Shown here: in pieces, positions 730 to 24,900 of the stretch
How the letters are laid out: every line of letters starts with the position of its first letter
Numbering within the stretch: position 1 is the first letter of the stretch
NCBI GenBank assembly: GCA_976551045.1
Contig: CDPCPM010000017.1
Span: 6,200,001 to 6,264,000 of the forward strand
Direction: 5' to 3'
Source: Glaucostegus cemiculus
Lineage: Eukaryota
DNA: 64,000 nucleotides
Program-made: the position numbers and the translations under genes
Notes under the pieces: generated by a model
What the model was told of the DNA's origin: nothing
Database searches by the model: none
Seen by the model: only the letters and a program-made list of their open reading frames with translations

Positions 730-976
730 CAATAACTTGCCCCAGCACACAAGTTTACCGCTACAATATGACAGCCTGTAATCGTACCTGTGAATTTCTG
801 TCAAAGCCTGATTTTACATGTGAGTTTCAAGACGTTCCAGTTACTGGTTGTGGTTGCCCTGAGGGAATGTACATGAATGAAAAAGCAACATGTGTGACCA
901 AATCAGAATGCCCTTGCTATGTCAATGGATTGATTATACAAGGAGGTCAGGCCCTTACACTTAATGGAATGACTTG
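730..976 (+). CDS. muc19: Mucin exon: TIL and start of E/VWC-like module of the D2 assembly ([20 protein letters not shown]...CPCYVNG...MTC)
   Basis: tttcaag acceptor; TG|gtgagt donor; TIL cysteine spacing. Confidence 0.88.
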
Positions 977-3900
977 GTGAGTATTTTTTGTTTTGCTCTG
1001 CATAATTTGAATCAGATAACAAATTGCCAACAAAGTAATAAGATGTAATTTTTTCACAGTTTCTGTGACAATGGAGTTCCTTCCTGCCCTGAAGATAATG
1101 GCCTGCTCACTTCACAAGGTAATTCATTTTCCAAACTCTGACCTGTATGAATAGACAATATAGACAATAGGAGCAAAAGTAGAACATTTGGCCCTTCGAG
1201 TCTGCTCCACCATTTTGAGATCATGGCTGATCCTCAACACTCAATATCCCGTTCCTGCCTTGTCCCCATATCCCTTGATTCCCCTATCTATAAGAAACCT
1301 AGCTAGCTCCTTCTTGAAAGTGTCCAGAGAATTGGCCTCCACTGCCCTTTGAGGCAGTGTGTTCCACAAACTCACAACCCTCTGGGAGAAGAAGTTTTTC
1401 CTCACCTCTGTCCTAAATGGCCTACCCCTTATTCTTAAATCATGCCCTCTGGTCCTGGACTTCCCCAACATCTGGAACATATTTCCTGTCTCTATCTTGT
1501 CCAATCCCTTAACAATCTTGTATGTTTCAATCTGATCCCCTCTCAATCTTCTCAATTCCAGCGTGTACAATCCCAGTCTATCCAACCTCTCTGCATAAGA
1601 CAGTCCTGACATCCCCGGAATTAACCTCGTAAACCTACGCTGCACGCCCTCTATAGCCAGGATATCCTTCCCTAACCCCGGAGACCAAAACTGTACACAA
1701 TACTCCAGGAGCGGTCTCACCAGGGCCCTGTACAAATGCAAAAGAATCTCTTTGCTCTTGTACTCAATTCCCCTCATAATACAGGCCAACATTCCATTAG
1801 CCTTCATCACCGCCTGCTGCACTTGCTCATTCACTTTCAGCGACTGATGAACAAGGATTCCTAGATCCCTTTGTACCTCCCCTTTACCTAACTCCACACC
1901 ATTCAGATAATAATCTGCCTTCCTGTTCCTGCTCCCAAAGTGGATAACCTCACACTTATCCACATTAAACTTCATCTGCCAAGTATCTGCCCACTCACCC
2001 AACCTATCCAAGTCACCTTGAATCCTCCTAACTTCCTCTACACATGTCGCACTGCCACCCAACTTTGTATCATCAGCAAACTTACTAATGTTATTCTCAA
2101 TGCCTTCATCTAAATCATTAACATAGATCGTAAATAGCTGCGGTCTCAGCACCGAGCCCTGCGGCACCCCACTAGTCACGGCCTGCCATTCCGAGAAACA
2201 TCCATTCACCCCTAGTTTCCTATCTGCCAACCAGTTTTCTATCCAAGTTAATACCCTCCCCCCAATTCCATGAGCCCTCATTTTACCCACCAATCTCCTG
2301 TGCGGCACCTTATCAAATGCCTTCTGAAAGTCGAGGTACACAACATCCACCGAATCTCCCTCATCTATTTTCCTGGTTACATCCTCAAAAAACTCCAGTA
2401 GATTAGTCAAGCACGATTTGCCCTTGGTAAATCCATGTTGACTCGACCCAATCCTATCATTGATACCCAAATATGCCGCTATTTCATCCTTAATAATGGA
2501 CTCTAGCATCTTCCCCACCACAGACGTCAGGCTAACCGGACGATAGTTCCCCGTTTTTTCCCTCCCTCCTTTCTTAAAAAGTGGGATTACATTGGCCATT
2601 CTCCAATCCTCAGGAACTGACCCAGAATCTAGGGAACATCGGAAAATGATCACCAATGCATCCACAATTTCTAGAGCCACCTCCTTTAGTACCCTGGGAT
2701 GCAGACCATCCGGACCTGGGGATTTGTCAGCCTTCAGCCCCATTAGTCTACCCATCACCATTTCTTTCCTAATGTCAATCCACTTCAGTTCCTCCATCAC
2801 CCTCTGCCTTTTGTCCATCTGTACCTCTGGGAGATTTCTTACATCTTCCCCAGTGAATACAGATCCAAAGTACTCATTAAATTCGACTGCCATCTCCCTG
2901 TTTCCTGTAATAATTTCACCTGATTCAGTTTTCAAGGGCCCAACATTGTTCCTAACTAGCTTCTTTCCCTTCACATACCTAAAAAAGCTTTTGCTATCCT
3001 CTTTGATATTCCTAGCTAGCTTGCCCTTACAGTTCCTCAGTTCTATCCACACTGACTCTACTTCTCCTGATTCAATGTCCCCCCTTGCAAGGGACTGAAT
3101 CTCATTCCTCACCAACAGGGCCACCCCACCCCCTCTGCCCACCTTCCTGTCCTTACGATAGCACGTATACCCTTGAAAATTCATTTCCCAGGTCTGATCT
3201 CCCTGCAGCCATGTCTCCGTTATCCCAACAACATCATACTTACCCATTCGTATCTGAGCTTCAAGCTCACCTACCTTATTTCTGACACTCCGTGCATTCA
3301 GATATAGGATTTTTAACCCATTTCTCCTCTCTCCAGTCGTATTAATGTTCCTAAATTGTGTAGGTCCTACCTGTCCTCTACCCTCCATCTCACTATCCTC
3401 TCTCTCATTCCGGATCCCCTCCCCCTGCAAATTTAGTTTAAACCCCCCTGAGTAGCACTAGCAAACCTTCCTGCAAGCATGTCAATACCCCTCCAGTTCA
3501 GGTGTAAACCGTCCCGTTGGAACAGATCCTACCTTCCCTGGAACAAATCCCAATTATCCATAAACCTGAAGCCCTCCCTCTTGCACCATCCCCTCAGCCA
3601 CGTATTAATCTGCCTAATCTTCCTATTCCTCTCCTCACTCTCACATGGCACAGGTATGCAAGACACGTTTTTCACTGTACCTTGGTACAAATGACAATAA
3701 TAAACCAATGCCAATACCAAATATTTAGGTACAAAATTTAAATTTCTCATCACAATGATAATTAACTATAAAAAACTTGCTTTTCTTCAGATTGCCAAGA
3801 TAAACAATTTTCGGACTGTACCAATGCCAGTTTATGTAAGAGGACGTGCGAAACTCTAAACAAACCATGTGTAAGTGAAATGAACCAATATGACTTTGGT

Positions 3901-6900
3901 GCTCAGGTATCCTATTTTATAGATTGAACAATACCTTCAGACAATGTTGTTCAATACAGTCAACTATATAATGAATCAAGTGACCCATTTAGAAGTCTAC
4001 ACTGTGGTTTCCAATACAAGTTACAACACGAACAGCAACAAAGAGTGTGGTTACATGATATCATAGTCTAAAGGTAACTACATAGCTAATAATGGAGAAC
4101 TACTGTGAAATATTTAATATATGACGATTACCTATATATGCCATCCATTGGTCGGATATATTGCCAATTCTGCCAATTGATAATATGTCTCTCCTTTATA
4201 AAGCCAGACCCATGTGTCCCTGGCTGTGTCTGCCCTGATGGTTTGGTGGAGGATTCCAGTGGAAGATGCGTTGAACCACCCCAATGTCCATGTCAATTTG
4301 AAGGTGAAACCTTTGGTCCTGGAGAAACAATCAAAATTGATTGCAATAATTGGTGAGCTAAAACAATTATTAAGAGGAATGATACCACAAAATAACACAA
4401 ACTGCATAGAACTGCAGGATGATTTAACTCTGCACTCTACATTATAGCACATGCAATGGTGGACAATGGGAATGCACTGATGATCCATGTCCAAAGACCT
4501 GCCTCGTTTATGGAGATGGACACTACATAACATTTGATGGAAAACGGTACAGCTTTGATGGCAATTGTGAATATATCTTTGCTGAGGTAAGTTATAGGGT
4601 GTCACATTTAACATGGCTGTTTCCACTGGCAATTCTTTGTTTAGTTATAGATGTATTTGGTTATTCCTCAGATCTGCATCTTTCTGAAAAAAATCTCTGA
4701 AAAAGTTGTTGGTATTTTTGGTAATTTAGTGATGCTATACGATTGAGGTTTTATGGTTGAAATAGTAATTATTTTAGCAGCTTGAAATAAAGGAAAAATT
4801 GAAAATGATGGAGCTAGACCTTCAAATACCCAGTAGTGTACAGTAAGTGGGTGTTGCCCTTGGGAGACACAAAACAAATTATTATTTTATGGAGGGCAGG
4901 GATTGAAATTATTTGAATTAAATCAAGTGTGTCACAAATTATACATATATAGTCACATATCCAAAATCCCTACATTATTTAAAAGTTCATAAAGAAATAC
5001 CAAAGTCCATTTTTATTTGAAATAGTGATTGTTAATATGCATTTAAAATATTCAATTGAAATACTTACTCAAAATGTTCTTTAAAGAGTGAACTGTTTGT
5101 GTACAATGGGAAGTTGCCACAACTGCTTCTCAATTTCACGAGGTTGACCTTTGTTTCATTCTACTGACGGCTGTTGGAAGAGTGGAAGCAATGTTATCAG
5201 TGCAGCTGATCATGATTATACATTTACTTGTTCACTCATCATAAAAATAACAGCATTTCATACTTTGAAATTATTACATATGAGGCCATAATTATGCAGT
5301 GAACCATCAGAATGTGTGTTTAAAAGTATGAATTGGCTTAGACTCTGAGTTACTTAGTGATATTTACATCAGCAGAAATGTTTTTAAGCGTAATTTGAAA
5401 TCTCTTACATGTTGCATTTTTACGAGACACACATTTTAAAGAACCTAAGAATCCATTTGCTTTTTTTGAATTATGGTCAGAATCATAGTGTTGTAGTCTA
5501 GTTTAGGTATTATCTACTGACATGCCACCAAACTGTGCCCAGGATGTAAGTGGGACAGGCAGGTGAAACAGAATATGTCAATCAGATTACATCTCCCAGT
5601 CTTCTGAAGTCTGAATAGTTCTTCAGCGCACTGTTTTAGTGACTTTGAAGGTGCTGATTGCCACTTAGTGCTCAGGGATCCGTGAGTTCTTAATGTGACC
5701 TTGCCTTTTTCCCCTCCTGTGTATTATATTTTCTTAGGAACAATCTTATGAAAGTGTTCCTCATTGCTCAATAGAAATTATACTTGAATTACTGAACTGA
5801 TAGTGCTATGTCAAATTATGGGTTAAAATTCCACTGCATAAATTCATTCAAGTTATTTTCATCTCAGGACCAATGTCTACGAGAGATTGGCACATTCCAA
5901 ATACTGACAGAGAGTGTTCCCTGTTGCGAAAATGGAGTGACATGTTCAAGAAATATCAGAATCTTGTTTGAGGTATGTGTTTTGATTTATACCAATTAAG
6001 AGGAACTATCTGTTATGTTAGTATATGCTTGCAATTCCTAATCTGAAATTATTCAGCGTGTTAAAAACTTATTTATTTGCAAATGTATTCTTACAGGGTA
6101 AAGAACTAATTCTATTGAGAGGAAATGGAATAAGTGAAGTGTCTCTTGGCCATAACCAGTGCATAGATAATTCATATACAATTCACACAGTTGGACTCTA
6201 CTTAGTCCTGACATTTTCCAATGGAATCACTGTGATGTGGGACAAACGTACAAGATTTTCAATCACACTGGACCCAAAATGGAAGGTGAGTAGGGTTTGT
6301 AAATTAAGGTTTACTAGGATGTTTGATTCATTAAGAAGCAAAAATGCTTAGTTTTAAATATATATAATATAAATAAAATCCAAAATTCACAGAATACATT
6401 GAAGAAGGTTAAGGAAAGGAGGAAAAAAATCTGCAGAGTTTGGTAGAACATGCAGTAGTGGCTTGGTTGGTCAGGACAGAATCCATAATTACAGTGCAGT
6501 AGATTGAATAGGTTAGCATCATAACATTTTTTACTTGGTGCTGGACAACATTTTTCCACGTATATGTGAGACAGTATTGAAAAATAAGCAGAAAAGTTTA
6601 TAACATTAATACTTAATGATTTATACTTATGGGGTGGGGCTAGAAATAATTCAACAATCAAGGGAAGGCGGTCCAAAATTAAGAGTGGAAAACAGAATTG
6701 GGTTAGAGGCTGACAGTAAAGGTAAAACATATTATTGCAACACATTTGATGAGTAAGGGTTGGCACTTGCTAAAGTGGGATTGAGCAGTGTGAAACCTGC
6801 TGGGGTGAGGCTGGGAAAACCCTGTCAGCTCAAGGGTAGCTCAAGAGCCTGGCCTAATGCCAAGATGCCAGTGTGGGAAAGTAAAGAAAGGTTCTTTATT

Positions 6901-9900
6901 TGTAGGTATGAAAAGGTTGACACCCAAAGTCACAAAAGGGATATTAGATATATAATGTTTAAATTAACATAGAACAATACAGATCAGGAACAGGCCCTTT
7001 GGCCCACAATGTTGTGCCGGACTAATTAAGCTAGTGATGCCTAATTAAACTAAGACCTCTGCCTGCACATGATCCATATCCCTCCATTCTCTGTATATTC
7101 ATGCGCCTATCTAAGAGCCTCTTAAATACCTCCGTCATATCTGCTCCACCACCATGCATGACAGCCCATTCCAGGTACCCACCACTATCTGTGTAAAAAA
7201 ACTTGTCCCGCACATCTGAACTCTCACCTTAAATGCATGCCCTCCAGTATTAGATATTTTGACCTTGGGAAAAAGATACCAGTTGCCTTCTCTATCAGTG
7301 CCTTTCATAATTTTGTAAACTTCTATCAGATCTCCCCTTAGCCTCTGCTACTCCAGAGAAAACAACCCAAGTTTGCCAAACCTCTCCTTATAGCACCTGC
7401 CTTCCAATCAATTATTTCAAACAATCAAGTAAATTATTTTCTAGTAAGCAAGGAAACCAGAAGGACAATTTCAGAAACATATCCCTGTGCTGTCATCTAT
7501 CATCAATTGGCAGGAGTCTTGACTACATGGTCACAGGCTTATCTTCCTGTACAAATATGAATCATAAATTGTGATGTGAACAGTGTAAGGATGCCCTAAA
7601 ATGAGCAGGAAACAATAACAACAATTTCCACAGGGTATGTACATAGCAAAGATGATGAGGAAGTAAGTTGAATACCAGGCCTTTTTTAACAATAAATAAA
7701 TCAGACTCAAATCATTCTCTACTTTAAATTTATATGTTTGGCCCTTTATTTCTATTTTAAATATCTTTGCTTAGACTTTAAATGAAACAACCTGCATAAA
7801 AGTTCTCACATTAATATTTATGAGGAGGGCCATTCAAACTATAGTGTAATACATCCATCTAGAACTATGCTGTGATCCTCTCAAGAAAGGAGTTGGTTGT
7901 TTGTGGAAAATACCCAGAGATTTTACCATACCAACCGATGGATTATTTAATTCTAAGTAGTTGTTGATTCTGTAACAAAAGAATTAAAGAAAGAATTTGT
8001 ATTTAGTTGGGACTGTTCACAACTTTACAATTCTGCAATGCCATTAATATATAATAGGATACTCTTTGAGGGATAGGCAATATTGTACTAATGCAAGAAC
8101 CTTTTGATATTCCATCTGCTCTGAGGTTTTGGTAGTTTTTGGAACACCCAAGTACTTTATGGTTGGGGAAAGTCACTGGAAGATGTGCAGAAGGTCATTC
8201 TTCAGTGTAAAAAGAGAGGATGACAAAAACAATTGAAGAAAAAAAATGATAAATTCACGTACGTAGTGCCTTACTCAACTTTAACATATCTCAAGGCACT
8301 TTATTAATCAATTCTGTAGGTTTGATTTTGGGCTAGCTTGGAAAAAAGTATAAAACAGGAATTATGGTTTTAGAATAGTAACCATTACTTTGTTTCTCTT
8401 GCACACTAAAGAATAAAGTTTGTGGCCTTTGTGGAAATTTCAACGATGACCTTCAAGATGACTTAACAACAAAAGGGAACTCCTTGGTGACCAGCTTTGT
8501 GGAATTTGGGAACAGTTGGAAGTCCATGCAGTTTTGCTCTAATACAGTAAATCAAACATTTCCATGTGATAACAATCCTTATTGTTTAGCATGGGCTCAG
8601 AAGAGGTGTAACTTGATTAATAGCCCAGTCTTTCAAGCATGTCACAAAAGGGTAAGATACAAAATAAAATTTGAGATATAAAACTTTTCTAAAATGCACC
8701 CATGATTTCTGACACACTGGCACTTTATCAGGTTGATCCAATTCCATTTTATGATGCTTGTGTCCAAGAAGCTTGTGCCTGTGATATGGAAGGAAAATAC
8801 CTTGGTTTCTGCACTGCTGTTGCTGTGTATGCAGAGGCTTGTAACAAAGCTGATGTTTGTATTCGCTGGAGAACCCCTGAACTTTGTCGTAAGTTTAAAC
8901 TTCTTTATTTTTTGCAGACAAAATTAAGATCTGTGTTCACGAACTCAGTGTGATTGGCTTCTACTTATATAACTCTCTGGCCAACAGATAACATGACTGT
9001 TTTAATTTGGTGCTCACTGCTGTTGCCTTGAGTCAATTTTGTAATGGCAGCAAGCAAATAAAGAAACGTTACTTGTTTTTTTGATATTCTCATCTTTTCT
9101 TTCACAGCTGGTAGAGCTGCTATATCACAGCTCCAGCAACCTGAGTTCATTCCTGACCTTCAATGCTGTCTGTGTGGCGTTTGCATGTTCTCCCTGTGAC
9201 CACTAGGTTTCCTCTGGTTTTCTCCCACATCCTAAGGATGTGCTGGGTTGGCAGGTTAATAAGCCACTCTATATTGTCCCAGATATTTAAATAAATGGTC
9301 GCCCTGGGGGAGTTGACAGGAATGTGAGGAGAATAAAAACAATGGGATTTATGTAAATTGTAAAGGATGGCTGGTTTGGACATAGTGGGCCGAAGACCCA
9401 ATACTGTGTTGTATGACCAAGATCTCCTAACCCCTTTTTGAACATCGTTTGGAGGATACTCATGGGCAATTGTTTGTACATTGAATGATGAATCACCTCC
9501 AGCCTCATGATGATCAGTATCTGCATCACTCTTTTTCTTCTCAAGAAAGACAAATCAGCACTGCAGCATACTTTTAAAGTTCAATTCACCAAGTAAAATA
9601 CACTCAGCATGTCTCACAGAATAGTATCCGACCTCTATGATAATCCACACATAATCTGAAGTATTCATTTTATTTGATATCCTCATCTACTTGCTTTATT
9701 CGGGACATCTATAGACATTTATTTACAGTCTGGATGTGCTGCCACCATCCATTTTCCATCGTTTTTATGTCCCTTAGCATTGGGAGTGAATGCAGGTATC
9801 ATCACAGCTATCAGTTTTTCTGCTGGTCAACAATATTTACAGGGGGATAGTCTGTAGGGGAGAAGATTGTATTTCTTTTGCCAACCTCAGTACCACTTAT

Positions 9901-12900
9901 TAATTGGAATAATAACTTTTGGGGTGTAACAATCTGAGTGTCAGTGAACGTTGGGATTTACACTCTGCCCCAGTGGAGTCCAACAGTCCAGGTTAAAGAT
10001 CAATTTGTTTAAGTAGATTCAAACTATGTTTATTTTTGGAAATAAGTAATTAAACATCACATTTTAACATTCTATTTCATACTACAGCTGTGTACTGTGA
10101 CTATTACAACAATCCTGGTGACTGCAGTTGGCACTATCAGCCATGTGGAACCATAACAACAAGAACGTGCTCAGGCCAGTTCGTTGGGAAGAAGTATTCA
10201 GCAGTTCTTGAAGGTGTTGTTTAGATTATATTCAAATATTCCAAAACTTTTAAAGCACATTTTTAAGTATCAGACTATTTCTGATACATAATATTAATTA
10301 ATTATCTTTGAAACAGGTGTACTTTTTGATGAAGATTTGTAACAATCGATGATGCATAAGTAAAATAATAATTAGTAATTCATAGAATAGATGATGGGAG
10401 ACCAGTGGATGGTCTTAATAAAACTTTTGAGAAAGTGCCACCCAGAGGCTGGTCAATAGGGTTAGACTACATGAGCACATGAATCAATGGTAATATACTG
10501 GGATGGATTGAATCTGGTTATTGGACAGAAAACAAGAGTGGGAATAAACAAATCCTTCTCGGGTTGATAGGCTGTGACTTGAGGGGGAGAGCAGGTACCT
10601 GGTGTTTGGACCATCTCTATCCTGATTTGGCTGAGCAGACTAAATAACATATTTCCAAATTTGCTGATGATACCAAGTCAGGTAGGATTACAAATACAGA
10701 GCAAGATGTGATGAGGCTTCAGGGAGATATGAATAAGCTGAGTGAGTGGGTAAAATGGAATATAATCAGAAAACAGTGTATTTGGTATATGGTGACAGGT
10801 TGTGCTGATATTCAAGGGGACCTGAGTGTGGTTGTACATAAGTCACCGAAAACCACCATTTGGATGCAGCAAGCGTTTTGAGGGCAAGTGGTATATTAGT
10901 CTTTATAGTGAGAGAGTTTGATTACAGGAGTAAGGAAGTCTTTCGGAACCTTGGTGAGTTCACAGCTAGAATATTATGTACAGTTTTGATCTCCTCACCT
11001 AAGGAAGGATGTACTTGCCATGGGGGTGAGGGTGTGGGTGTATGGTTGGGGCTGCAGAAAAATCACTAGTCCAGGGGATGGTGAGTTTGTTGTTTTAGGA
11101 GAGACTGAGTTGATTGGGACTGTATTGTCTTGACCTTGAATGGGACATCTCATTGAAACTTACAAAATATGGATACATGGTTCAACAGGCTGGATTCAGG
11201 GAGAATGATTCCCTGAAGTGAAACGTCTAGGACCAGGAGGCACAGTTTGAGAAAAAGGAGTATGAGGAGGACTGAGAGGAGGAAAACTGTTGTCATTCAG
11301 AGAGCACTGAACCATTGGAATTCTCTTCCAAAAGAGTGGTGGAAGTTCAACTGAGTTCATTCAATACAGAGACTGAAAGATTTCTGGACATGAAAGAAAT
11401 CATGTGATATGATGATAGAGCTGGAAAAGCAGCATTGAAGTAGAAGATCAGACATGATTTCAATGAAAGACAGTAGACTCAAAGGGCCAGGTGGTCTACG
11501 ACTTCAACTTTTTATGTTCTTATAAAAGGGGACAATTTCTGATTTTTGCAATCCCTTGACAGAGAACAAAATCAACAAATAGTAAACCCTTGCCTTCAAA
11601 CTTCCCAATAATGCTCCAGCTGTTGCAAAATCTCTCTGAGATCAAAGTGTTTTGTTTTAATTGACGGGCTTCAAGTGTGTGAATTTAAATCTGAATTTTG
11701 GTGCTGATAGATCTGATTCATGTTTTCTGTGTTTATTTAAAATATCCAGCAATCATGTTTATCTTCATGGTGACTTTTACTTTTCAATGTTAAAGGTTGC
11801 TATGCCAAATGCCCAGATAGTGCACCCTATTTGGATGAAAATACTATGAAGTGTGTTACATTACCTCAGTGCACATGCTATTATGATGGAAAAATATTGC
11901 AACCTGGTGAAACAACAATGAATGATTGTGAAGCATGGTAAAGTATCATATTATTTCACTTATCACCATTCTTGTGTTGAAAGCAAAAATTGTCACAAAA
12001 ATGGGTCTTGAATCTTTTACATATTTAACTATTCTCTTATTAATGCTGTAATATATTTTCCTGAGAAAGTTGAGTTTTGTTACCTTGAAAAGATGTGAAA
12101 GCTTTTCTTATAAATTACTGATAAGCCAGTTTAAATTAAAAATATTTCTATTTGACATTTACCAAAGTTAGATGAATTTTTGTACTCTAAAACAATAAAT
12201 TAAAATGTAACTTTTTTCACTTCATATTGATGCACTAGCTTGTAAAATAGATATTCTGATAATTGAAGCATAAAATGCAACCTGCAATTAATTGTTAATG
12301 AACACAGACTCATTAACTATTCTTGCCCCCTGCCCAAAATGACTTCCAGATCCTTATTCTTCCTCCCAAATCTGCTACTTTTCTATTCCTTCAAAGATCT
12401 TACTTGTGTTCCTTCTATCCTTCATCTCAGAAAAGGCAGTTGACCCCATTCATCCCCAAATCCCTTGTCACCCGGAAGTTAATCCACAAGTTTACCCACA
12501 AACATGCACTTTAAGAGTTTCAAAGACTTTGGCAATGATTTCAGAGTTTGAACTTACTTTCCCATTCTTCTAGCAGCTTAATGTCCATACTTTGCAAACT
12601 GTTAATGTAAGAATCACTTGAGAATCATTTGTTGTTTTAAAATCTTATTTAATTTACAGTACGTGCAAAGAAGGAGTCATGTCATGCGAATGTAAGTAAC
12701 TGTGTTCAGCATTCACTTGATGACAGAATGAAATTATGCAATGAATTATCATACTTCACTACAGCAGAATATTTATCTTGTTAACAATGCAATATTAATA
12801 GTATCAACAACTGATTGAAATATTTCTAAAAGATTGTGCATGTCCTTAACTTCCAAATGAAGCTACCAATTAAATCTGCAGGTAAAGGAAAAAACAAATG

Positions 12901-15900
12901 AGTTAATATTACACCAATGTTATTTCCATTGCGTTCTTAGAACTTTATTTTGGTCCTCTATTTCTCCATCAATTTTTGAAAAGAAATCTATGGAAAATAG
13001 TAAGGGATAAATAGCATTCACACCATAATTCTTGGGTTTTTGTGCCATTATTAGTTATTAATAACTAATTTATGTCTAGTTATTATTTTAGAAAACATTA
13101 TAAATAGATTAGGACTCCAGTTTTATTGTGTGTATGTTTATTACAACAGCCGTAACTACCACAACTGTTGCATCAACAACAATATTCACATCATCATCAA
13201 CAACGACAATTTCTTCAACAACCAGCCCAGGTAAAGAGATCTAAGTATTCTATTTTAATAAAGAAATCAGAGTTGAAAATTAATACCACCAACTTGGGAT
13301 TAATTTTTCAATTCTAGCAGTTGAAAGTGAAACATATCTGACAGTATCCAAAGTTGCAGTAACCATCAACAACTGTGAATTAATGATTTATACTTAACTA
13401 ATGTTTGTGATTTTGCAAAAATAAATATTGAAATACAAAAGGAAGGAAACAGAATTCAGTGTGCCTGGTTCTTTACTGGACATAAATTGGACAAAAAGGG
13501 GTCAACAATCCGGTTATTCTTTGATATGTTTAAGGATCCAAATGTAAAATTGGATGGCAATTAGCTTATAAGCTCTCCTGGGTCTTAAGGAGATAACAAA
13601 GACTGGTGTAAAAAGGCCAATGTGTGCTTCCAGAGCCACAAAAAAAAAGTGGGACTTTACCAACCAGGGCACCTCCTTTTTGTGTCAGCTCTACTGCCAC
13701 ACCACATACCTCCTGGCTTACAGGACCACAGAAAAGCAACTGCTGGTACCAAAGGCATCCCAATATTGCTACATTAGTAAGGAAAAGCCTGGGCATGAAC
13801 TTAATTGCAATGGCTAATTGCTGGTCAGGCTAGCAGACTCACGCTGCTCACTCAGCTAAATTACGATGATTAGGCCTTTAGGCCTAAGGCCAAGAGTATC
13901 CTCACAACTGTTCATTCTATGACTGGGCATTGCCCGACTTCTTGTGCAAGGCATTAATAGTCAATCTGAAAAATTCACCTTCAGGGTCAAACTTAGTTGT
14001 TGTTTATAAGGACAGATTCTGAATTTTTGCAGACATTAAACTTGACATTTTCTGTTCTAAGTCTTGCTAAAATGAAAGTTTTCAAAATCTGGGAGAAAAC
14101 CAGGATCCAGCTTAAAAACATGAGTAGTTTAGAAATGAGATTATAATGGCCATTGCAAATGTAATTTTGCTGAAAAGTACATCATTGTAATTTATATGGT
14201 GTAAACAATGATTAGAAGAACAGAATGAAATAAAATGCTTTGAGGATAATTGATGGAAGAATCAGAGGTAAAATGAATAGATTTATTTTTAAGCTTATCA
14301 AATTATATGAATTTGATGGTGAGACAGCCACTGTCACAGATAAAATAGCATCCTGTTAATTCCAGATATAATCAGATTCGAGATGGCTTCAAATTTGACC
14401 AAGCAATCTTGAACACTCCCTTTTAACTTCTCTCAGAATTACCAACAGCATACAGTCACACTTCAAGGATTATGCAGTGATTGTGAACGTACTCTTTCTC
14501 TTTCAGAAGAAACAACATCAATAACTCTTACAACAGAGTCGACTTCCATTTCCACATCGGGTGAGTAATCATGTCCATCAATGACCATGAGCAAGATTTT
14601 CAACATAGGTTTCTTCATTACCTTATAAAGAGTGTTGCCTTTTGTTTTAACATGTTTTAGGTATAAATGAATTTGTCCATAATTATGCTTGAAGCAGTGT
14701 GGCAAAAACCTTCAACAAACTTGGCAAAAGGGAATCAGTTTTACGGTCCTTATTGTTCTCCTTCTACCAGAGTGACACCCATCACTATTTTGTAAAGGTT
14801 GAGAATGATGAGTCCTTTGAAAATATTGACATTAATGTGATTTTTCAGAGTCAGCTCCTACTCAAGGAAACTCCATTCTCTTGCATCTCTGACAATCTCA
14901 TTTAGATGGGGGTAGGCATTTAAAATGGCAAAATTATTTCAAGGGAGCTTGCAACAACATTCCATCATACAAAAAGCTAACATGCTAAATTTGAGTGGAC
15001 ATAAAATCAGCCGTTCAATTCTTTTTGCTTGAAACATGCCAGACATAGTTACTAAGAATGTGTGAGAGCAGTGAAACATGCGAAAGCGCAACAAGGCTGA
15101 TCATGAACCAGAAGAAAGGTAATGATAAGCTTCCAGGAATTCTGATATTAACTAGTATGGTAAATGTCGAATGTGACTGAAATATTCAGCTGTCAAATTA
15201 TAAAAAAAGCATTGACATGAGATTTTGTCTTATGATGCACATTGTTCTAGACTCAAGTTTCTTCATATTATCTCAATACATTGTACATTTGTACATGCCA
15301 CTGGTTACATGGAGGAAAATGCTCTGAGTGCTAAAAACACATCAATTTCCTGCAAATCAATTCATATGCATTTGATGGTAAATTCCATCAAGATACAATA
15401 TATAAGTTACGGCGAAATACAAGAAGATAATGCATGAGTAGATACTTCGAACACATCTCTATTCTTCGACTATATTTACTTTACAAACACATCTGCTGAA
15501 AATATACAACTAATTCGGCTACATGTTGGCTCAAAACACTGAGACCAAGGGATTGCAGAAACTTCCAAATGCCAAAGAAATGTGAAGAAACTAAGTTGGT
15601 GTCTTGTGCTTCTCACTGTCTTTGATACATTCTGCTGAAACAAACAAAAAAAGACTTGTGGTTGAGAATAATATTCTTTTTTTTAATTTCAAATAACAGA
15701 AAAAACATCGACAACCGAGACCACTACCACAACAGGTGAGCAACAATATTGTTCAAAGTCGTCAGCATGAGCTTCAGAAACTCTGTAGCCTGCCAAAAGC
15801 ACCTCTATTTGTTCTATCATCAGGACAATTGACCCAAATATATACAACACTCAATGCTAAATTTATTCACAGCTTTGCTCAAAACATTACAAAGTCTTCA

Positions 15901-18900
15901 GGTGAAAGTGTGGGAATAGCTTATGACATCAAGAGGTAAGCTGAGGTTCTGAAGGTCCACAATATTTTCAAAGGGAGCATTCAGCCTGGAATCTTTCAGT
16001 AGACATGGATATCAATTTTCGGCAGCAGAGAGTATTCAGAAAAAGGTCCCTTCTTGTCCTCCCTCCTCTTGCCACAGACCCCATCTCTGAGAGATCGAGG
16101 AAAAGGCTAAATAAATGAATACTGAACATATCAACGTGCATACCAAAGAGTAAAAGAGAGATTCGATCTGATGCACAATGCATTAGCTAAAGCAGTTCAA
16201 TCATGTAATACTCCATCTTTTCTGGAGGATGTAATTTCCTTACCAAAAGTGCCTTTTCTCATTTACACAAGTGGGACAAATTTCATTGCAAATTTGGACA
16301 CAGATAGTCTAATGATGATCATCACTCAAGGATCACATGCTTACTAAAAGGTGTGCTTTTGAGCGAAAGAATGACAGGACAAATTAAGAAATAGATGTCA
16401 TGAAAATTCTGCATGTACTCAAATAAGGGAGGCACCATGAGGATTTCAAGATTTTACCTCTGTCTTCTTTATTATTGCTAACTCGTCCTGAAACTAATAC
16501 GTTCATGAAATGCAAGTTCAGTGAGTGAAAATACGTTATTCTTTCACCAGAAACAACACCATCCACATCACCAACTCCCACAAGTGTGTCCACCACCAGT
16601 TCTACAACAGGTCAGTCACGTTCCTTTCAATACACATTGAAACACCTTAAGGAAAAGAGTGGATCTATCTAATCTCACTTGCATGGCTTCATTTCTCCAG
16701 CACCTTTGCATGATTTACATGCATTGCCTTTTCAGAAAAAAGGCACTTCTTGTAAAAGAGAGATTCCATTACATGTACGCAGTGCTTTAGCTTTGCCACC
16801 TAAACTCAGTGAAACTACAACCTATCAGGAGGTTGCCATTTGCATCCCGAAAGTGCGTTTTCTCATTCAAACAACTGGAATAAGTATCACTGCAGTTTTG
16901 GATGAAGATACTCTGATAAAGATCATCATCTCAAGGAACTCATGCTTCGTAAAAGAGGTGTGGATTTCATCAAGAGATTGTCAGTATGAATGACCAAGCA
17001 GATGTCATGTAAAATTCCTCCATGTACTCAAATCAGGAAAGTATCATCAAGGTTTGACGATTTTAGCACGGTCCTGTTAATAATCACTAACTCTTCGTGG
17101 ATTGATGTGCTTATGCAATGCAAGTCGTCTTCAGTGAGTGAAAATGCATTTATTCTTTCACCAGAAACAACACCATCCACATCAACAACACCCAAAAGTG
17201 TGTCCACCACCAGTTCTACAACAGGTGAGTCACGTTCCTTTCAATACACATTGAAACACCTTAAGGAAAAGAGTGGATCTTTCTAACATCACTTGCATGG
17301 CTTCATCTCTCCAGCATCATTGCATGATTTATGAACGTATATACTGTATGTTAATAAAACGTACGTCGATAGCGAACACATATTGGTTCAAAATTAGTCG
17401 ACCAACTTACCAATAGAATCTTCACAATGCTTAGGAAATCAGGAGGACCTGGCATGGTGTCTTCTGCTTCCCACTATCTTCCATACATTCAGCTGGAACA
17501 GGCAAAACTTGGCTGCTATACCTGATTATCACATTCCTTTCTTTTATCAGGAACAGCACCAACGACATCAGCAAATGTGACCACAACCAGTGCCACATCA
17601 GGTCAATATGACCATCCTTCACAATCGTTAGCATTTCCTTCAACACCTCTGGGCTCTGTTAATTGATGTTCCATTAACTGTAGCGTCAGTAACATTCCTA
17701 CATAGTTTTGCTAAAAGAAATTACAAATTCTCACCTTGAAGATGTGGGCTACAGCCCAGGAATGATGTAGGGGCCTCATGCTAATGACTCCCCTCAGTAC
17801 TTCCAAGAAGAGCAATGAGCTTGGCACATATCAATCCACGTTGATTGGTATTTTCGGCACCAAGACACTAAAACCTTGTCAGAAAACACCCTTCTCAACC
17901 TACCACAGACACAATCTCAGGATATTTGGTAATAGCTAGATGATTGAATATAGTCCATTGTCAGCTAAGTACTGCAGAGTAAAGGAATGATGAGATTCTG
18001 GATACATTGCTGGATGTGCCGCACCTCGATCTATTCAAAATCAGTCAGTGAAGGAGTTCAACAGAACTCTTCCCAGAGTCAGCTTCTCGCTTTCATACTT
18101 CTGTCCATGTAACAAGAATCAATTCAGAGTCACATAAAAGTTTTATGAAAATATTTATAATCTCATGGATCACAAGCTTACTAAGTACTGTGCATTATCT
18201 CCGACGAAACAGAGATCAATTTGTGTCTGAACATCATCAGCTCCGCTGTCGTGAAGATGATTTGAAAAATTCAAGCCAGTCTGAACAATATATGCTGAAT
18301 CATATCAAATCTGACCGTCTGCTCTTGCAATTGAAGTTTGTGGTACCAGTTGTAACACACTTGTACTTTTTCTCCAGGAACAACACCATCAGTAACTGGC
18401 ACAACTGAATCCACCAGCAGTTCCACAGCAGGTAAGTGAGAGTCCTTACAGCAAACATTGGAAAACTTTAAAACAAAGCGCAGCCTCTTCTAACACTTCT
18501 CACTGCTATTAGCATTTGTTACTCTTTTAACCTTCATGCTGGAAACATATCTCCGTAAATGTGTCACATTAGTAGCGAAACAATTAGATAGTTATTATAG
18601 AATCTTTATAAAGCTAAGGAAATGTGAAGGAATTCAGTTGGTGTCTTCTGATTCTCCCTGCCTTAAATACTATAAGGTGCAAGAAGGAAAATCTAGCTGG
18701 CGTGGTTGAGTCTAATATTCTTTTCTTGTATTTCAAAAATCAGAAACAACATCAACAACTGAGACCACTACCAGTACAACAACCACAACCACAACAGGTG
18801 AGTAACAATATCTTTCAAAAACGACAGCATGACCTTCAGCAACTCTGTGGCCTGTCAACTCCAGATCTATCTGTTCTGCAATCAGGAAAATTCACCCGTA

Positions 18901-21900
18901 TCCGCGACACTCAACATTAAATTGATTCATAGCTTTGCTCAAAAAATTACAATGACCTACCGCTCGAGTATTCGAATAACTTCTGAATTCAGGAGGGAAC
19001 TTGTGGTTCTGACTACCTTCATAGTTTCAAAAGGCGCAGGGAGCTTGGCATCTTCCATTGGACGTAGATGTCAATCTTCCGGCAGCAGAGCCTTTTCACA
19101 AATAGGGCTCTTCTCATAAAAGAGTGATTCAATTTCATGTACGCAGTGCTTTAGCTTTGGCACCTCAACTCTGCGGAAATCCAACTTTTCAGGAGGTTGC
19201 CATTTGCTTTCCGAAAGTGTCTTTTCTCATTCACACAATGGGAATAAATATCACTGCAGTTTTGGGCAAAGATATTCTGATAAAGATCATCATCTCAAGC
19301 ATCACATGCCTCCTAAAAGAGGTGTGCATTTGATCAAGAGATTGTCAGTATGAATGACCAACCAGATGTCATGTAAAATTCCTCCATGTACTCAAATCAG
19401 GAAAGCATCATCAAGGTTTGACAATTTTAGCACAGTCCACTTTATAATCGCTAACTCTTCGTGGATTGATGCGCTTATGCAATGCAAGTCGTCTTCAGTG
19501 AGTGAAAATGCATTTATTCTTTCACCAGAAACAACACCATCTACATCAACAACTCCCACAAGTGTGTCCACCACCAGTTCTACAACAGGTCAGTCACGTT
19601 CCTTTCAATACACATTGAAACACCGTAAGGAAAAGAGTGGATCTTTCTAACATCACTTGCATGGCTTCATTTCTCCAGCACCTTTGCATGATTTATGAAC
19701 GTATATGCTGTATGTTAATGAAATGTACGTCGATATCGATCACATATTGGTTCAAAGTTAGTCGACCAACTTACCAATAGAATCTTCACAATGCTTAGGA
19801 AATCAGGAGGACCTGGCATGGTGTCTTCTGCTTCCCACTATCTTCCATACATTCAGCTGGAACGGGCAAAACTTGGCTGCTGTACCTGATTATCACATTC
19901 CTTTCTTTTATTAGGAACAGCACCAACGACATCAGCAACTGTGACCACAACCAGTACCACATCAGGTCAGTAAGACCATCTTTCAAAATTGTTAGCATTT
20001 CCTTCACCACCTCTGGGCTCGGTTAATTGATGTTCCATTAACTCTAGCGTCACTAACATTCCACCATAGTTTTGCAGAAAGAAATAACAAATTCTCACCT
20101 TGAAGATGTGGGGTACAACCCAGGAATGAAGTAGGGGCCTCGTGCTAATGACTCCCCTCAGTACTTCCAAGAAGACAATGAGCTTGGCACATATCAATCC
20201 ACGTTGATTGGTAGTATCGGCACCAAGAAACCAAAACCTTGCCAGAAAAGCCCCTTCTCTACCTCATACAGACACAACCTCAGGATATTTGGTAATAGCT
20301 AGATGATTGAATATAGTCCATTGTCAGCTAAGTACTGCAGAGTAGAGGAATGATGAGATTCTGGATACATTGCTGGATGTGCCGCACCTCGATCTTCTCA
20401 AACTCTGTCAGTGAAGCAGTTCAACAGAACTCTTCCCAAAGTCAGCTTCTCACTTTCATACTTCTGTCCATGTAACAAGAATCAACTCAGATTCACATAA
20501 AAGTTTTCTGAAAATATTTATAATCTCATGGATCACAAGCTTACTAAGTACTGTGCATGAGATCAAGATTTTGTCATTATCTCCGACGAAACAGAGATCA
20601 ATTTGTGTCTGAACATCATCAGCTCCGCCGTCGTGAAGATGATTTGAAAAATTCAAGCCAATCTGAACAATATATGCTGAATCATATCAAATCTGACCGC
20701 CTGCTCTTGCAATTTAAGTTTGTAGTACCAGTTGTAACACACTTGTACTTTTTCTCCAGGAACAACACCGTCAGTAACTGGCACAACTGAATCCACCAGC
20801 AGTTCCACAGCAGGTAAGTGAGAGTCCTTACAGCAAACACTGGCAAACTTTAAACCAGAGTGCAGCCTCTTCTAACACTTCTCACTGCTATTAGCATTTG
20901 TTACTTTTTTAACCTTCATGCTGTAAAAATATCTCCGTAAATCTGTTACATTAGGAGCAAAACAATTAGATAGTTATAGAATCTTGAAAAAGCTAAGGAA
21001 ATGTGAAGGAATTCAGTTGGTGTCTTCTGCTTCTCACCGCCTTTAATGCTTTCTGCTGCAAGAAGAAAAATCCAGCGGCCGTCGTTGAGTCTAATATTCT
21101 TTTCCTTTATTTCAAAAATCAGAAACAACAGCAGCAACCGAGACAACCACCACTACTACAACCACAACCATAACAGGTGAGTAACAATATCATTCAAAAA
21201 TGTCACCATGACCTTCAGCAACTCTGTGGCCTTCCAACTCCAGCTCTTTCTGTTCTGCCATCAGGAAAATTCACCCAAGTGTCCACGACACTCAACACTA
21301 CATTGATTCATACCTTTGCTCAAAAAATTACCGTGACCTCCCGCTCAATTAATCAAATAACTTATGAACTCAGGAGGGAACTTGTGGTTCTGACAGCCCT
21401 TTATATTTTCAAAAGGTACAGGGAGCTTGGCATCTTCCATTGGACGTGGATGTCAATCTTCTGCAGCAGAGCCTTTTCACAAAAAAGGCTCTTCTCGTAA
21501 AAGAGAGATTCCATTTCATGTATGCAGTGCTTTAGCTTTGGCACCTCAACTCTGTGAAACTCCAACTTTTCAGGAGGTTGCCATTTGCTTCCCGAAAGTG
21601 CCTTTACTCATTCACACAACTGGAATAAATATCACTGCAGCTTTGGACAAAGATATTCTGATAAAGATCATCATCTCAAGGAACACAAGCTTCCTAAAAG
21701 AGGTGTGGATTTCATCAAGAGATTGTCAGTATGAATGACCAAGCAGATGTCATGTAAAATGCCTCCATGTACTCAAATCAGGAAAGCATCATCAAGGTTT
21801 GACGATTTTAGCACAGTCCTCTTTATTATTGCTAACTCGTCCTGGATTGTTGTGCTTATGCAATGCAAGTCGTCTTCAGTGAGTGAAAATGCATTTATTC

Positions 21901-24900
21901 TTTCACCAGAAACAACACCATCCACATCAACAACTCCCACAAGTGTGTCCACCACCGGTTCTACAACAGGTCAGTCACGTTCCTTTCAATACACATTGAA
22001 ACACCTTAAGGAAAAGAGTGGATCTTTCTAACATCACTTGCATGGCTTCATTTCTCCAGCACTTTTGCATGACTTATGAATGTATATGCTGAATGTTAAT
22101 TAAACGTACATCTATATCGATCACATAATGGTTCAAAGTTAGTCGACCAGCTTACCAATAGAATCTTCAAAATGCTTAGGAAATCAGGAAGACCTGGGAT
22201 GGTGTCTTCTGCTTCCCACTGTCTTCCATACATTCAGCTGGAACGGGCAAAACTTGGCTGCTGTATCTGATTATCACATTCCTTTCTTTTATTAGGAACA
22301 GCACCAACGACAGCAGCAACTGTGACCACAACCAGAACCACAACAGGTCAGTAAGACCATCTTTCACAATCGTTAGCATTTCCTTCAGCACCTCTGGGCT
22401 CTGTTAAATTAAGTTCCATTAACTTGAGCGTCAGTAACATTCCTACATAGTTTTGCTGAAAGAAATTAGAAATCCTCACTGTGACATAGCCCAGGAATGA
22501 AGCAGGGGCCTCGTGCTACTGACTCCCCTCAGTACTTCCAAAAAGAGCAATGAGCTTGGCACATATCAATCCACATTGATTGGTAGTTTCGGCAACAAGA
22601 CACCAAAACCTTGTCAGAAAAGCCCCTTCTCTACCTCATACAGACACAACCTCAGGATATTTGGTAATAGCTAGATGATTGAGTTTAGTCCATTGTCAGC
22701 TAAGTACTGCAGAGTAAAGGAATGATGAGATTCTGGATAGATTGCTGGATGTGCCGCACCTCGATCTTCTCAAACTCTGTCAGTGAAGGAGTTCAACAGA
22801 ACTCATCCCAAAGTTAGCTTCTCACTTTCATACTTCTGTGCATGTAACAAGAATCAATTCAGATTCACATAAAGGTATTCTGAAAATATTTATAATCTCA
22901 TTGTTCACAAGCTTACTAAGTAGTGTGAATGAGATCGAGATTTTGACATTATCTCTGACGAAACAGAAATCAATTTGTGTCTGAACATCATCAGCTCCGC
23001 CGTCATGAAGATGATTTGAAAAATTCAAGCCAGTCTGAACAATATATGCTGAATCATATCAATCTGACCGCCTGCTCTTGCAATTTAAGATTGTAGTACC
23101 AGTTGTAACACACTTGTACTTTTTCTCCAGGAACAACACCATCAGTAACTGGCACAACTGAATCCACCAGCAGTTCCACAGCAGGTAAGTGAGAGTCCAT
23201 ACAGCAAACACTGGCAAACTTTAAACCAAAGTGCAGCCTCTTCTAACACTTCTCACTGCTATTAGCATTTGTTACTTTTTTAACCTTCATGCTGGAAACA
23301 TATCTCCGTAAATGTGTCACGTTAGTAGCGAAACAATTAGATAGTTATTATAGAATCTTTAAAAAGCTAAGGAAATGTGAAGGAATTCAGTTGGTGTCTT
23401 CTGCTTCTCCCTGCCTTAAATACTATAAGGTGCAAGAAGGAAAATCGAGCTGGCGTGGTTGAGTCTAATATTCTTTTCTTGTATTTCAAAAATCAGAAAC
23501 AACATCAACAACCGAGACCACTACCAGTACAACAACCACAACCACAACAGGTGAGTTACAATATCTTTCAAAAACGACAGCATGACCTTCAGCAACTCTG
23601 TGGCCTATCAACTCCAGATCTATCTGTTCTGCAATCAGGAAAATTCACCCGTATCCGCGACACTCAACATTAAATTGATTCATAGCTTTGCTCAAAAAAT
23701 TACAATGACCTACCGCTCAAGTATTCGAATAACTTCTGAATTCAGGAGGGAACTTGCGGTTCTGACTACCTTCATAGTTTCAAAAGGCGCAGGGAGCTTG
23801 GCATCTTCCATTGGACGTGGATGTCAATCTTCCGGCAGCAGAGCCTTTTCACAAAAAGGGCTCTTCTCATAAAAGAGTGATTCAATTTCATGTATGCAGT
23901 GCTTTAGCTTTGGCACCTCAACTCTGCGGAAATCAAACTTTTCAGGAGGTTGCCATTTGCTTTCCGAAAGTGTCTTTTCTCATTCACTCATGGGAATAAA
24001 TATCACTGCAGTTTTGGACAAAGATATTCTGATAAAGATCATCATCTCAAGCATCACATGCCTCCTAAAAGAGGTGTGCATTTGATCAAGAGATTGTCAG
24101 TATGAATGACCAACCAGATGTCATGTAAAATTCCTCCATGTACTCAAATCAGGAAAGCATCATCAAGGTTTGACGATTTTAGCACAGTCCACTTTATAAT
24201 CGCTCACTCTTCGTGGATTGATGCGCTTATGCAATGCAAGTCGTCTTCAGTGAGTGAAAATGCATTTATTCTTTCACCAGAAACAACACCATCGACATCA
24301 ACAACTCCCACAAGTGTGTCCACCACCAGTTCTACAACAGGTCAGTCACGTTCCTTTCAATACACATTGAAACACCGTAAGGAAAAGAGTGGATCTTTCT
24401 AACATCACTTGCATGGCTTCATTTCTCCAGCACCTTTGCATGATTTATGAACGTATATGCTGTATGTTAATGAAACGTACGTCGATATCGATCACATATT
24501 GGTTCAAAGTTAGTCGACCAACTTAACAATAGAATCTTCACAATGCTTAGGAAATCAGGAGGACCTGGCATGGTGTCTTCTGCTTCCCACTATCTTCCAT
24601 ACATTCAGCTGGAACGGGCAAAACTTGGCTGCTGTACCTGATTATCACATTCCTTTCTTTTATTAGGAACAGCACCAACGACATCAGCAACTGTGACCAC
24701 AACCAGTACCACATCAGGTCAGTAAGACCATCTTTCAAAATTGTTAGCATTTCCTTCACCACCTCTGGGCTCGGTTAATTGATGTTCCATTAACTCTAGC
24801 GTCACTAACAATCCACCATAGTTTTGCGGAAAGAAATAACAAATTCTCACCTTGAAGATGTGGGGTACAACCCAGGAATGAAGTAGGGGCCTCGTGCTAA

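Follow-up and report, generated by a model that had tools for sequence, protein, structure and literature searches.

The repeat unit of a tandem exon array in a predicted MUC19-like gel-forming mucin gene of Glaucostegus cemiculus is itself made of two homologous halves. The array lies in a 64,000-nucleotide stretch of contig CDPCPM010000017.1 (hereafter C17), which we call the window (C17:6200001-6264000). Coordinates without a prefix are window positions, all window features given here are on the + strand, and the analysed region around the window spans 264 kb. Each monomer of 2.37 kb carries four predicted exons, A to D, and its halves are homologous two-exon units that each consist of an exon, a short intron, a second exon and a long intron. 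An earlier reading of this DNA from its letters alone (the sequence-only reading) had described the monomer as an ancient duplication of a ~1.2-kb two-exon unit, nested in turn within larger repeats.

Self-comparison of the window reveals a 2.37-kb tandem array that runs from ~16.7 kb to the window end, with fainter matches at half-period offsets of ~1.2 kb. In monomer 1, half 1 (17165-18377, 1213 nt) and half 2 (18378-19528, 1151 nt) align collinearly with a global score of 1312, against 372 ± 42 for dinucleotide shuffles (z-score 22.6; reached by 0 of 100). The sequence-only reading had predicted a collinear ~1.2-kb signal between these two segments, and it indeed stands well above the shuffled background. 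Ungapped 40-nt windows place the diagonal between the halves at offsets 1132-1224. Tandem Repeats Finder, for which the longest period covered was 500, returned no match.

The introns of monomer 1 alternate between short and long, and the lengths reported earlier are exact: 326 nt for A-B (17225-17550), 776 nt for B-C (17602-18377), 312 nt for C-D (18432-18743) and 731 nt for D-A (18798-19528). Introns of the same type can be aligned with each other, as had also been claimed. Specifically, same-type pairs reach z 11-13 against shuffles (short-short 11.0, long-long 11.6), whereas the four short-versus-long pairings yield global z of 0.4-1.3 and local z of 0.0-3.3. With strict gaps, for which the null is ~47%, the short introns are identical at 185 of 303 positions (61%) and the long introns at 389 of 674 (58%); a lenient-gap identity of 69% was discarded as inflated, because unrelated pairs likewise reach 68-77%. 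Divided into three parts, the long intron exceeds 100 shuffles in each of them (z 12.3, 4.1 and 8.6). The introns were also trimmed of splice signals and compared with real windows taken outside the array in this 264-kb region, and 0 of 300 and 0 of 200 such windows reached their scores. Transitions account for 188 of the 453 differences between the introns of the two halves, compared to 32.5% expected (p 3e-5). If the register is cut within the short introns, the resulting units, P and Q, are 59% identical over ~1100 columns (Jukes-Cantor distance 0.60). Three of the nine sequence motifs quoted in the earlier reading have no exact occurrence inside 17165-19528 and come from other monomers (first at 23350, 23392 and 19966), but close variants stand at the matching places.

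Homology extends to the predicted exons. Exons A (17165-17224, 60 nt, phase 1-1) and C (18378-18431, 54 nt) are identical at 41 of 54 positions and differ in length by a 6-nt indel, and both start with (E/G)TTPS, which bears out the shared xTTPS start noticed before. Exons B (17551-17601, 51 nt) and D (18744-18797, 54 nt) agree at 39 of 51 positions when the 9 bases upstream of D are counted. Relative to the position that corresponds to the B acceptor, the D acceptor is displaced 9 nt downstream, a shift compensated by 12 extra nt at the 3′ end of D. A still smaller, one-exon ancestor of ~0.6 kb could not be demonstrated from the short-versus-long comparisons, in which cross-type flank pairs give z of -1.3 to 3.6 and within-type pairs up to 21, although a few within-type pairs are low too. 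All 115 predicted micro-exons of the proline-, threonine- and serine-rich (PTS) region have AG/GT ends and lengths divisible by 3, and all are of phase 1-1. Splicing them in silico to the flanking exons yields 2293 codons free of stops, and the predicted PTS region of 2103 residues is 54% Thr and 20% Ser (74% combined) with 6% Pro. Three splice sites, each in a single copy, look weak: a GAG acceptor at 49602-49604 before exon D of monomer 14 (exon from 49605), and the donors GTAACT at 42156-42161 and GTCAAT at 17602-17607. Skipping at these sites would preserve the frame.

Above the monomer, the array is organized at further levels. The homogenised array (17165-64000 in the window) comprises 27 monomers, of which 20 start in the window and the last ends at C17:6281089; internal monomers are 2358-2383 nt long. 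Monomers of types X and Y differ at 156-185 positions (~7%), whereas the nearest copies of the same type show 0-3 differences, and the alternation of X and Y produces a 4.74-kb period. Z monomers combine a Y 5′ part with an X 3′ part. The first of these (48007-50388) creates a 7.14-kb trimer, and the others start at 55143, 62278 and contig position 6274167. The 127 X/Y diagnostic sites resolve the array, from one edge to the other, as (YX)x6, (ZYX)x3, Y X Z Y. In each of the four Z monomers the change from Y to X falls within the B-C intron, in the interval equivalent to 17879-17948, and so all of them share a single breakpoint. Half homology, X/Y alternation and the Z trimer together support the hierarchy of 1.2 to 2.37 to 4.74/7.14 kb put forward by the sequence-only reading, and they correspond to three nested levels of identity, at 59%, 93% and 98-100%.

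Viewed by the Willard-type criteria for a higher-order repeat (HOR), neighbouring primary units are far more diverged (41% between halves) than units one period apart (~7% between X and Y, and 0-3 differences within a type), and the primary units lie head-to-tail and collinear inside the multimer. A single regular period is not found, as a dimer zone passes into a trimer zone and then into a mixed one, which makes the array a variant or complex HOR. Across monomers 1-26, exons contain 0 gap runs and introns 18, and variable columns number 24 of 219 in exons and 341 of 2145 in introns.

Copies of the two-exon unit also persist outside the homogenised array, unamplified and diverged, at 14290-16550 and at contig positions 6281090-6282290. 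The 5′ edge relic (14290-16550) contains a C-like exon (14507-14560), a D-like exon (15700-15735) and their introns, with 50-56% (C side) and 73-76% (D side) identity to array and edge units; its 5′-most piece is 50-56% identical to all units. Between this relic and the array lies a partial monomer (16551-17164), in which an A exon (16551-16610) is followed by the 5′ part of a short intron, which is fused out of homologous register to the 3′ part of a D-A intron. The edge units are 69-76% identical to Q-type units and 58-66% identical to P, and a tree of eight units separates P from Q-like units (100/100) and places the 3′ edge unit on an earlier branch than the 5′ one (99.9/100). The 3′ edge unit keeps the acceptor position of B together with a D-like exon body, and in that segment it is equidistant from both halves (0.69-0.76). 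The next acceptor flank, that of the 3′-most unit, aligns with those of both A and C at z 9-11, although A and C compared directly reach just 1.7, and thus this flank links the two. The last two-exon unit stops inside its short intron at C17:6282290-6283400 (L002:8290-9400), with no second exon before the CysD exon. From its resemblance to such elements, we take the sequence at this end to be like a long interspersed nuclear element (LINE).

Because diverged two-exon units remain unamplified at both edges, the monomer more probably represents two adjacent units taken from an older array of about five than the product of one clean doubling. The earlier description of the monomer as a duplicated 1.2-kb unit therefore stands with regard to the homology of its halves, but a single doubling is the less probable route. 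A second trace of this history is a ~94-nt segment of the D-A intron, partly matched in the B-C intron, which both edge copies keep and which is deleted in 5 of the 5 internal copies aligned. The deletion was considered as a junction scar of the 2.37-kb duplication and rejected, since in the 3′ edge copy the step in identity comes ~65 columns past the deletion, and the sequence to the right of the deletion is split 50:48 between the edges.

How might such an array have changed its repeat unit more than once? We consider it likely that old ~1.2-kb tandem copies were re-amplified as ever larger blocks by unequal crossing-over. In models of tandem arrays, pairing moves to the next larger period as adjacent units diverge. 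By this route, a unit of exon, short intron, exon and long intron would have been copied to about five units, which drifted 25-45% apart. Neighbours would then have become too unlike to pair, such that a two-unit block served as the new pairing unit and was amplified, and the 94-nt intron deletion would have swept the internal copies while sparing the edges. Monomers would next have diverged by 7% into X and Y as the 4.74-kb dimer spread. Finally, we infer that one crossover, out of register by one monomer and later amplified, could account for both Z and the 7.14-kb trimer. Taken with array models of this kind, the patterns seen here make ordinary unequal crossing-over with concerted evolution the most likely mechanism. 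Because every exon is of phase 1-1 and a multiple of three in length, the reading frame would stay intact whenever whole units are gained or lost. Selection would act chiefly on the length and the Thr/Ser density of the O-glycosylated region, and not on the hierarchy.

Several observations count against this account of stepwise re-amplification. The founding junction of the 2.37-kb block was sought by comparison of the edges and was not located; past this step in identity, similarity favors the 5′ over the 3′ edge by only 49:33, or by 50:48 if the split is made at the deletion, and the grouping of the 5′-most relic with P is weak (0.54 versus 0.50-0.51). Exons A to D are themselves predictions from sequence, and one assembly cannot distinguish crossing-over from gene conversion or replication-based copying. 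The closest sampled paralog shows no clear homologue of the unit's introns even though its flanking introns are kept at 62-71%, which would be explained most simply if that gene's own array had turned over. The edge units also admit a reading as old dimers that are chimeric or have lost sequence. If so, the monomer would derive from one doubling of a single 1.2-kb unit, with the edge units left over from older four-exon monomers after deletion or recombination. This possibility is a contender because the 3′ edge unit is mosaic and partly deleted: it is half-1-like at its 5′ end (0.77 versus 0.56-0.59), half-2-like at its 3′ end (0.73 versus 0.60), and lacks ~350 nt of the long intron. Likewise, with the exception of the 5′-most relic, the edge units all group with Q and diverge later than the P/Q split, and the 5′ edge order of exon, C-like, D-like and A could be an old dimer. 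Yet the 3′ edge unit behaves as an independent old unit in its B acceptor position, its D-like body, its 0.69-0.76 identity to both halves and its bridging of A and C, and it branches before the shift of the D acceptor. We regard the single doubling as possible but rather unlikely; it overlaps in part with stepwise re-amplification, which we continue to favor.

Selection might instead maintain the alternating introns and the nesting, either as a register for in-frame recombination or as skippable cassettes that tune the length of the mucin in an individual animal. The symmetry of 115 of 115 predicted exons, the three weak-looking splice sites described above and the presence of similar micro-exon arrays in two paralogs would fit this idea, and like ideas have been proposed, in the parts of the reports drawn on here, for MaSp2 (PMC9779670) and chicken Muc13 (PMC1552070). 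However, away from exons the introns of the two halves share 49-64% identity per 100 columns (and 48% in a block of 27), without any stretch that is sharply conserved, introns accept indels freely, the paralogs have other unit sizes (1.37 and 5.95 kb) with unrelated introns, and Rfam gives no match in 14000-22000 at E 0.1. Maintenance by selection is accordingly improbable in our estimation. There is next to no chance that the likeness of the halves comes from composition, splice signals or a shared dispersed repeat, or that the array is an assembly artefact. The exons are of low complexity and rich in ACA/ACC, and some monomers are identical or nearly so (monomer 22 equals monomer 24), such that copy number could be mis-assembled. 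Nevertheless, the trimmed introns alone outscore the 300 and 200 real control windows and show the transition bias, the similarity is collinear along the whole unit, and all 30 scored genome matches of a 341-nt piece fall at this locus, among the matches listed. Halves that are 59% identical are not something that assemblers create, and for the halves this explanation is refuted.

The gene that carries the array appears to be a MUC19-like gel-forming mucin that retains CysD and D4. Upstream of the PTS region, D′-D3 exons with TIL, VWD and C8 matches occupy 730-12691, and the first predicted PTS exon (13150-13230, 81 nt) lies outside the repeat. Of the three VWD-C8-TIL assemblies expected at the N-terminus, three C8 exons, three TIL matches and the D3 VWD were mapped, whereas no positions were assigned to a signal peptide or to the VWD exons of D1 and D2. 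Downstream of the array are matches to CysD (Mucin2_WxxW), VWD, C8 and the cystine knot, the last of which (Cys_knot, E 1e-5 at L004:9719-9919) represents the C-terminal cystine knot of a gel-forming mucin. This domain content does not match a mammalian-type MUC19 architecture, which is without CysD and without a fourth VWD-C8. The D3 C8 exon, a single exon of 52 aa, matches MUC2, MUC5AC and MUC5B structures about equally. Among named proteins, it lies nearest to those called 'mucin-19-like' from cartilaginous fishes (85-94% identity), and it is because these are the closest named D3 relatives that we assign the gene as MUC19-like. Among ten clusters of relatives of this exon, six are automatically named mucin-19-like, two are unnamed VWFD or hypothetical proteins, and two bear the names mucin-6-like and 5AC-like at 63-64% identity. 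The closest named protein has a public model, XP_069763811.1, with a Gln/Pro/Arg-rich repeat terminus where the PTS region is expected, and this terminus looks like a wrong-frame reading of a micro-exon array. A LINE-like insertion, presumably of the CR1 type, occupies 1150-3650 in an intron of the D′-D3 region and matches other copies in the 264 kb at 65-68%.

Neighbouring mucin genes were sampled as 12 stretch groups. Tandem micro-exon arrays occur in two genes among these groups, and both are nested, with units of their own. The next mucin gene (C17:6381000-6404000, L012-L014) repeats a PTS unit of five exons and 5953 bp, whose copies are 99.8% identical and which contains an internal two-exon duplication block 89% identical over 1.09 kb. 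LINE-like sequence also lies inside this unit. The closest sampled paralog (C17:5090001-5120000, minus strand, L033-L035) has a 1.37-kb three-exon PTS unit in at least 8 copies; the intron sequence that flanks its first exon matches that around the third (z 11.6 and 7.2), which indicates an older internal duplication, and a three-unit offset matches better (95.9%) than a two-unit offset (92.3%). Among the remaining groups are CysD+PTS units of ~3 kb, PTS frames that run long within one exon, and dispersed short exons, and some yielded nothing. Because both neighbouring micro-exon-array genes are nested too, nesting is a habit of the mucin cluster rather than a peculiarity of this gene.

The closest sampled paralog also offers a relative clock. 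It shares 84-92% amino-acid identity in D3, and its flanking intron blocks are shared at 62-71%. Since the halves are identical at ~59%, the P/Q split appears to be about as old as, or older than, the gene duplication that gave rise to this paralog. The duplication may thus be called ancient, as it had been, in this relative sense alone. The paralog at C17 5.09-5.12 Mb was also considered as a living two-exon ancestor and rejected, because its 1.37-kb unit has a third exon; its introns have no clear match, with a best z of 4.9 among 107 pairs, whereas a 108th pair, the orthologous flanking intron, gives z 36.5. Two further repeats were seen on other contigs. At C168:1040001-1050000 (L039), a 6969-bp unit is 99.97% identical to its neighbour and contains nested internal repeats (68-86%), which encode small cysteine-rich exons and not PTS. 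At C375:888000-956000, about ten near-identical 7.1-kb repeats carry several VWD matches each, an architecture that we take to be FCGBP-like.

A broader proposal would be that cartilaginous-fish MUC19-like genes build their glycosylated region from symmetric micro-exon arrays whose unit size climbs as neighbours diverge, with exon-skipping cassettes that give many mucin lengths per animal. We hold this to be doubtful. If it is true, the locus would be the clearest fossil record of such a unit-size ladder, with four alternating homogenised intron types.

HOR-like organization inside a coding gene, to which the sequence-only reading drew attention, is present here but is not new. The human NBPF/Olduvai 3mer, as described in the portion of the report used here, is a HOR in a coding gene with two-exon monomers of ~1.6 kb, whose HOR copies are ~1-2% apart and monomers ~18% apart (PMC9584774). 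The mucin array resembles it in lying within a coding gene and in having two-exon primary units. It differs from the two levels described there in its three nested levels, its edge relics and its PTS location, and no sequence relationship is claimed. Primate alpha-satellite HORs, as summarised in the same source, consist of 171-bp monomers 20-40% apart in near-identical multimers; they share the pattern alone, as they are non-coding and centromeric.

Among mucins, chicken Muc13 distributes its PTS repeats over many exons, one 20-aa repeat per exon, with a suggested control of length by splicing (PMC1552070), and chicken MUC2 has a 69-aa repeat with alternating linkers in exons 32-45 (PMC3549977). 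A multi-exon PTS region is common to all three genes. Unlike the present gene, however, Muc13 is a membrane mucin, the chicken MUC2 exons are ~240 nt rather than 51-60 nt, and the parts of those two reports drawn on here do not describe nested duplication of exon-intron blocks. With MUC19 and spiggin mucins, the gene shares a D-domain N-terminus and a PTS region; according to the portion of the comparative survey by Lang et al. used here, its CysD and fourth VWD-C8 are absent from mammalian MUC19, whereas some spiggins have a fourth VWD, and few mucins were counted in ghost shark, with incomplete sampling noted (PMC4948705). The central repeat exon of human MUC19 is reported to be uninterrupted (PMC13345508). 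Our literature search, with most subscription papers and supplements outside its reach, found neither this locus described nor any account of cartilaginous-fish PTS regions built as nested arrays of micro-exons. The present gene shows that fish mucins of this kind can have a PTS region made of a micro-exon array, which automatic annotation may misread.

The silk genes MaSp2.1a and MaSp2.2a of Argiope provide a close parallel in structure, although the sequences are unrelated. In the part of that report relied on here, their core unit comprises two exons and two alternating homogenised introns, unequal crossing-over is proposed, edge introns are handled apart, and the authors state that they are aware of no other gene with two alternating homogenised intron types (PMC9779670). 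The mucin adds a case to this class, and it alternates four intron types that are homologous in pairs and so record an older two-intron unit. Together, these comparisons mark the locus as a new example of an already known pattern, the nested growth of tandem exon blocks, with no new mechanism or function indicated. Its value lies in a multi-level record of an array changing its repeat unit, read from freely drifting introns at ~41%, 7% and <2% divergence and accompanied by a mapped recombinant, a swept deletion and unhomogenised edges. Such a record is a usable test case for unequal-crossover models of HOR formation in single-copy coding DNA.

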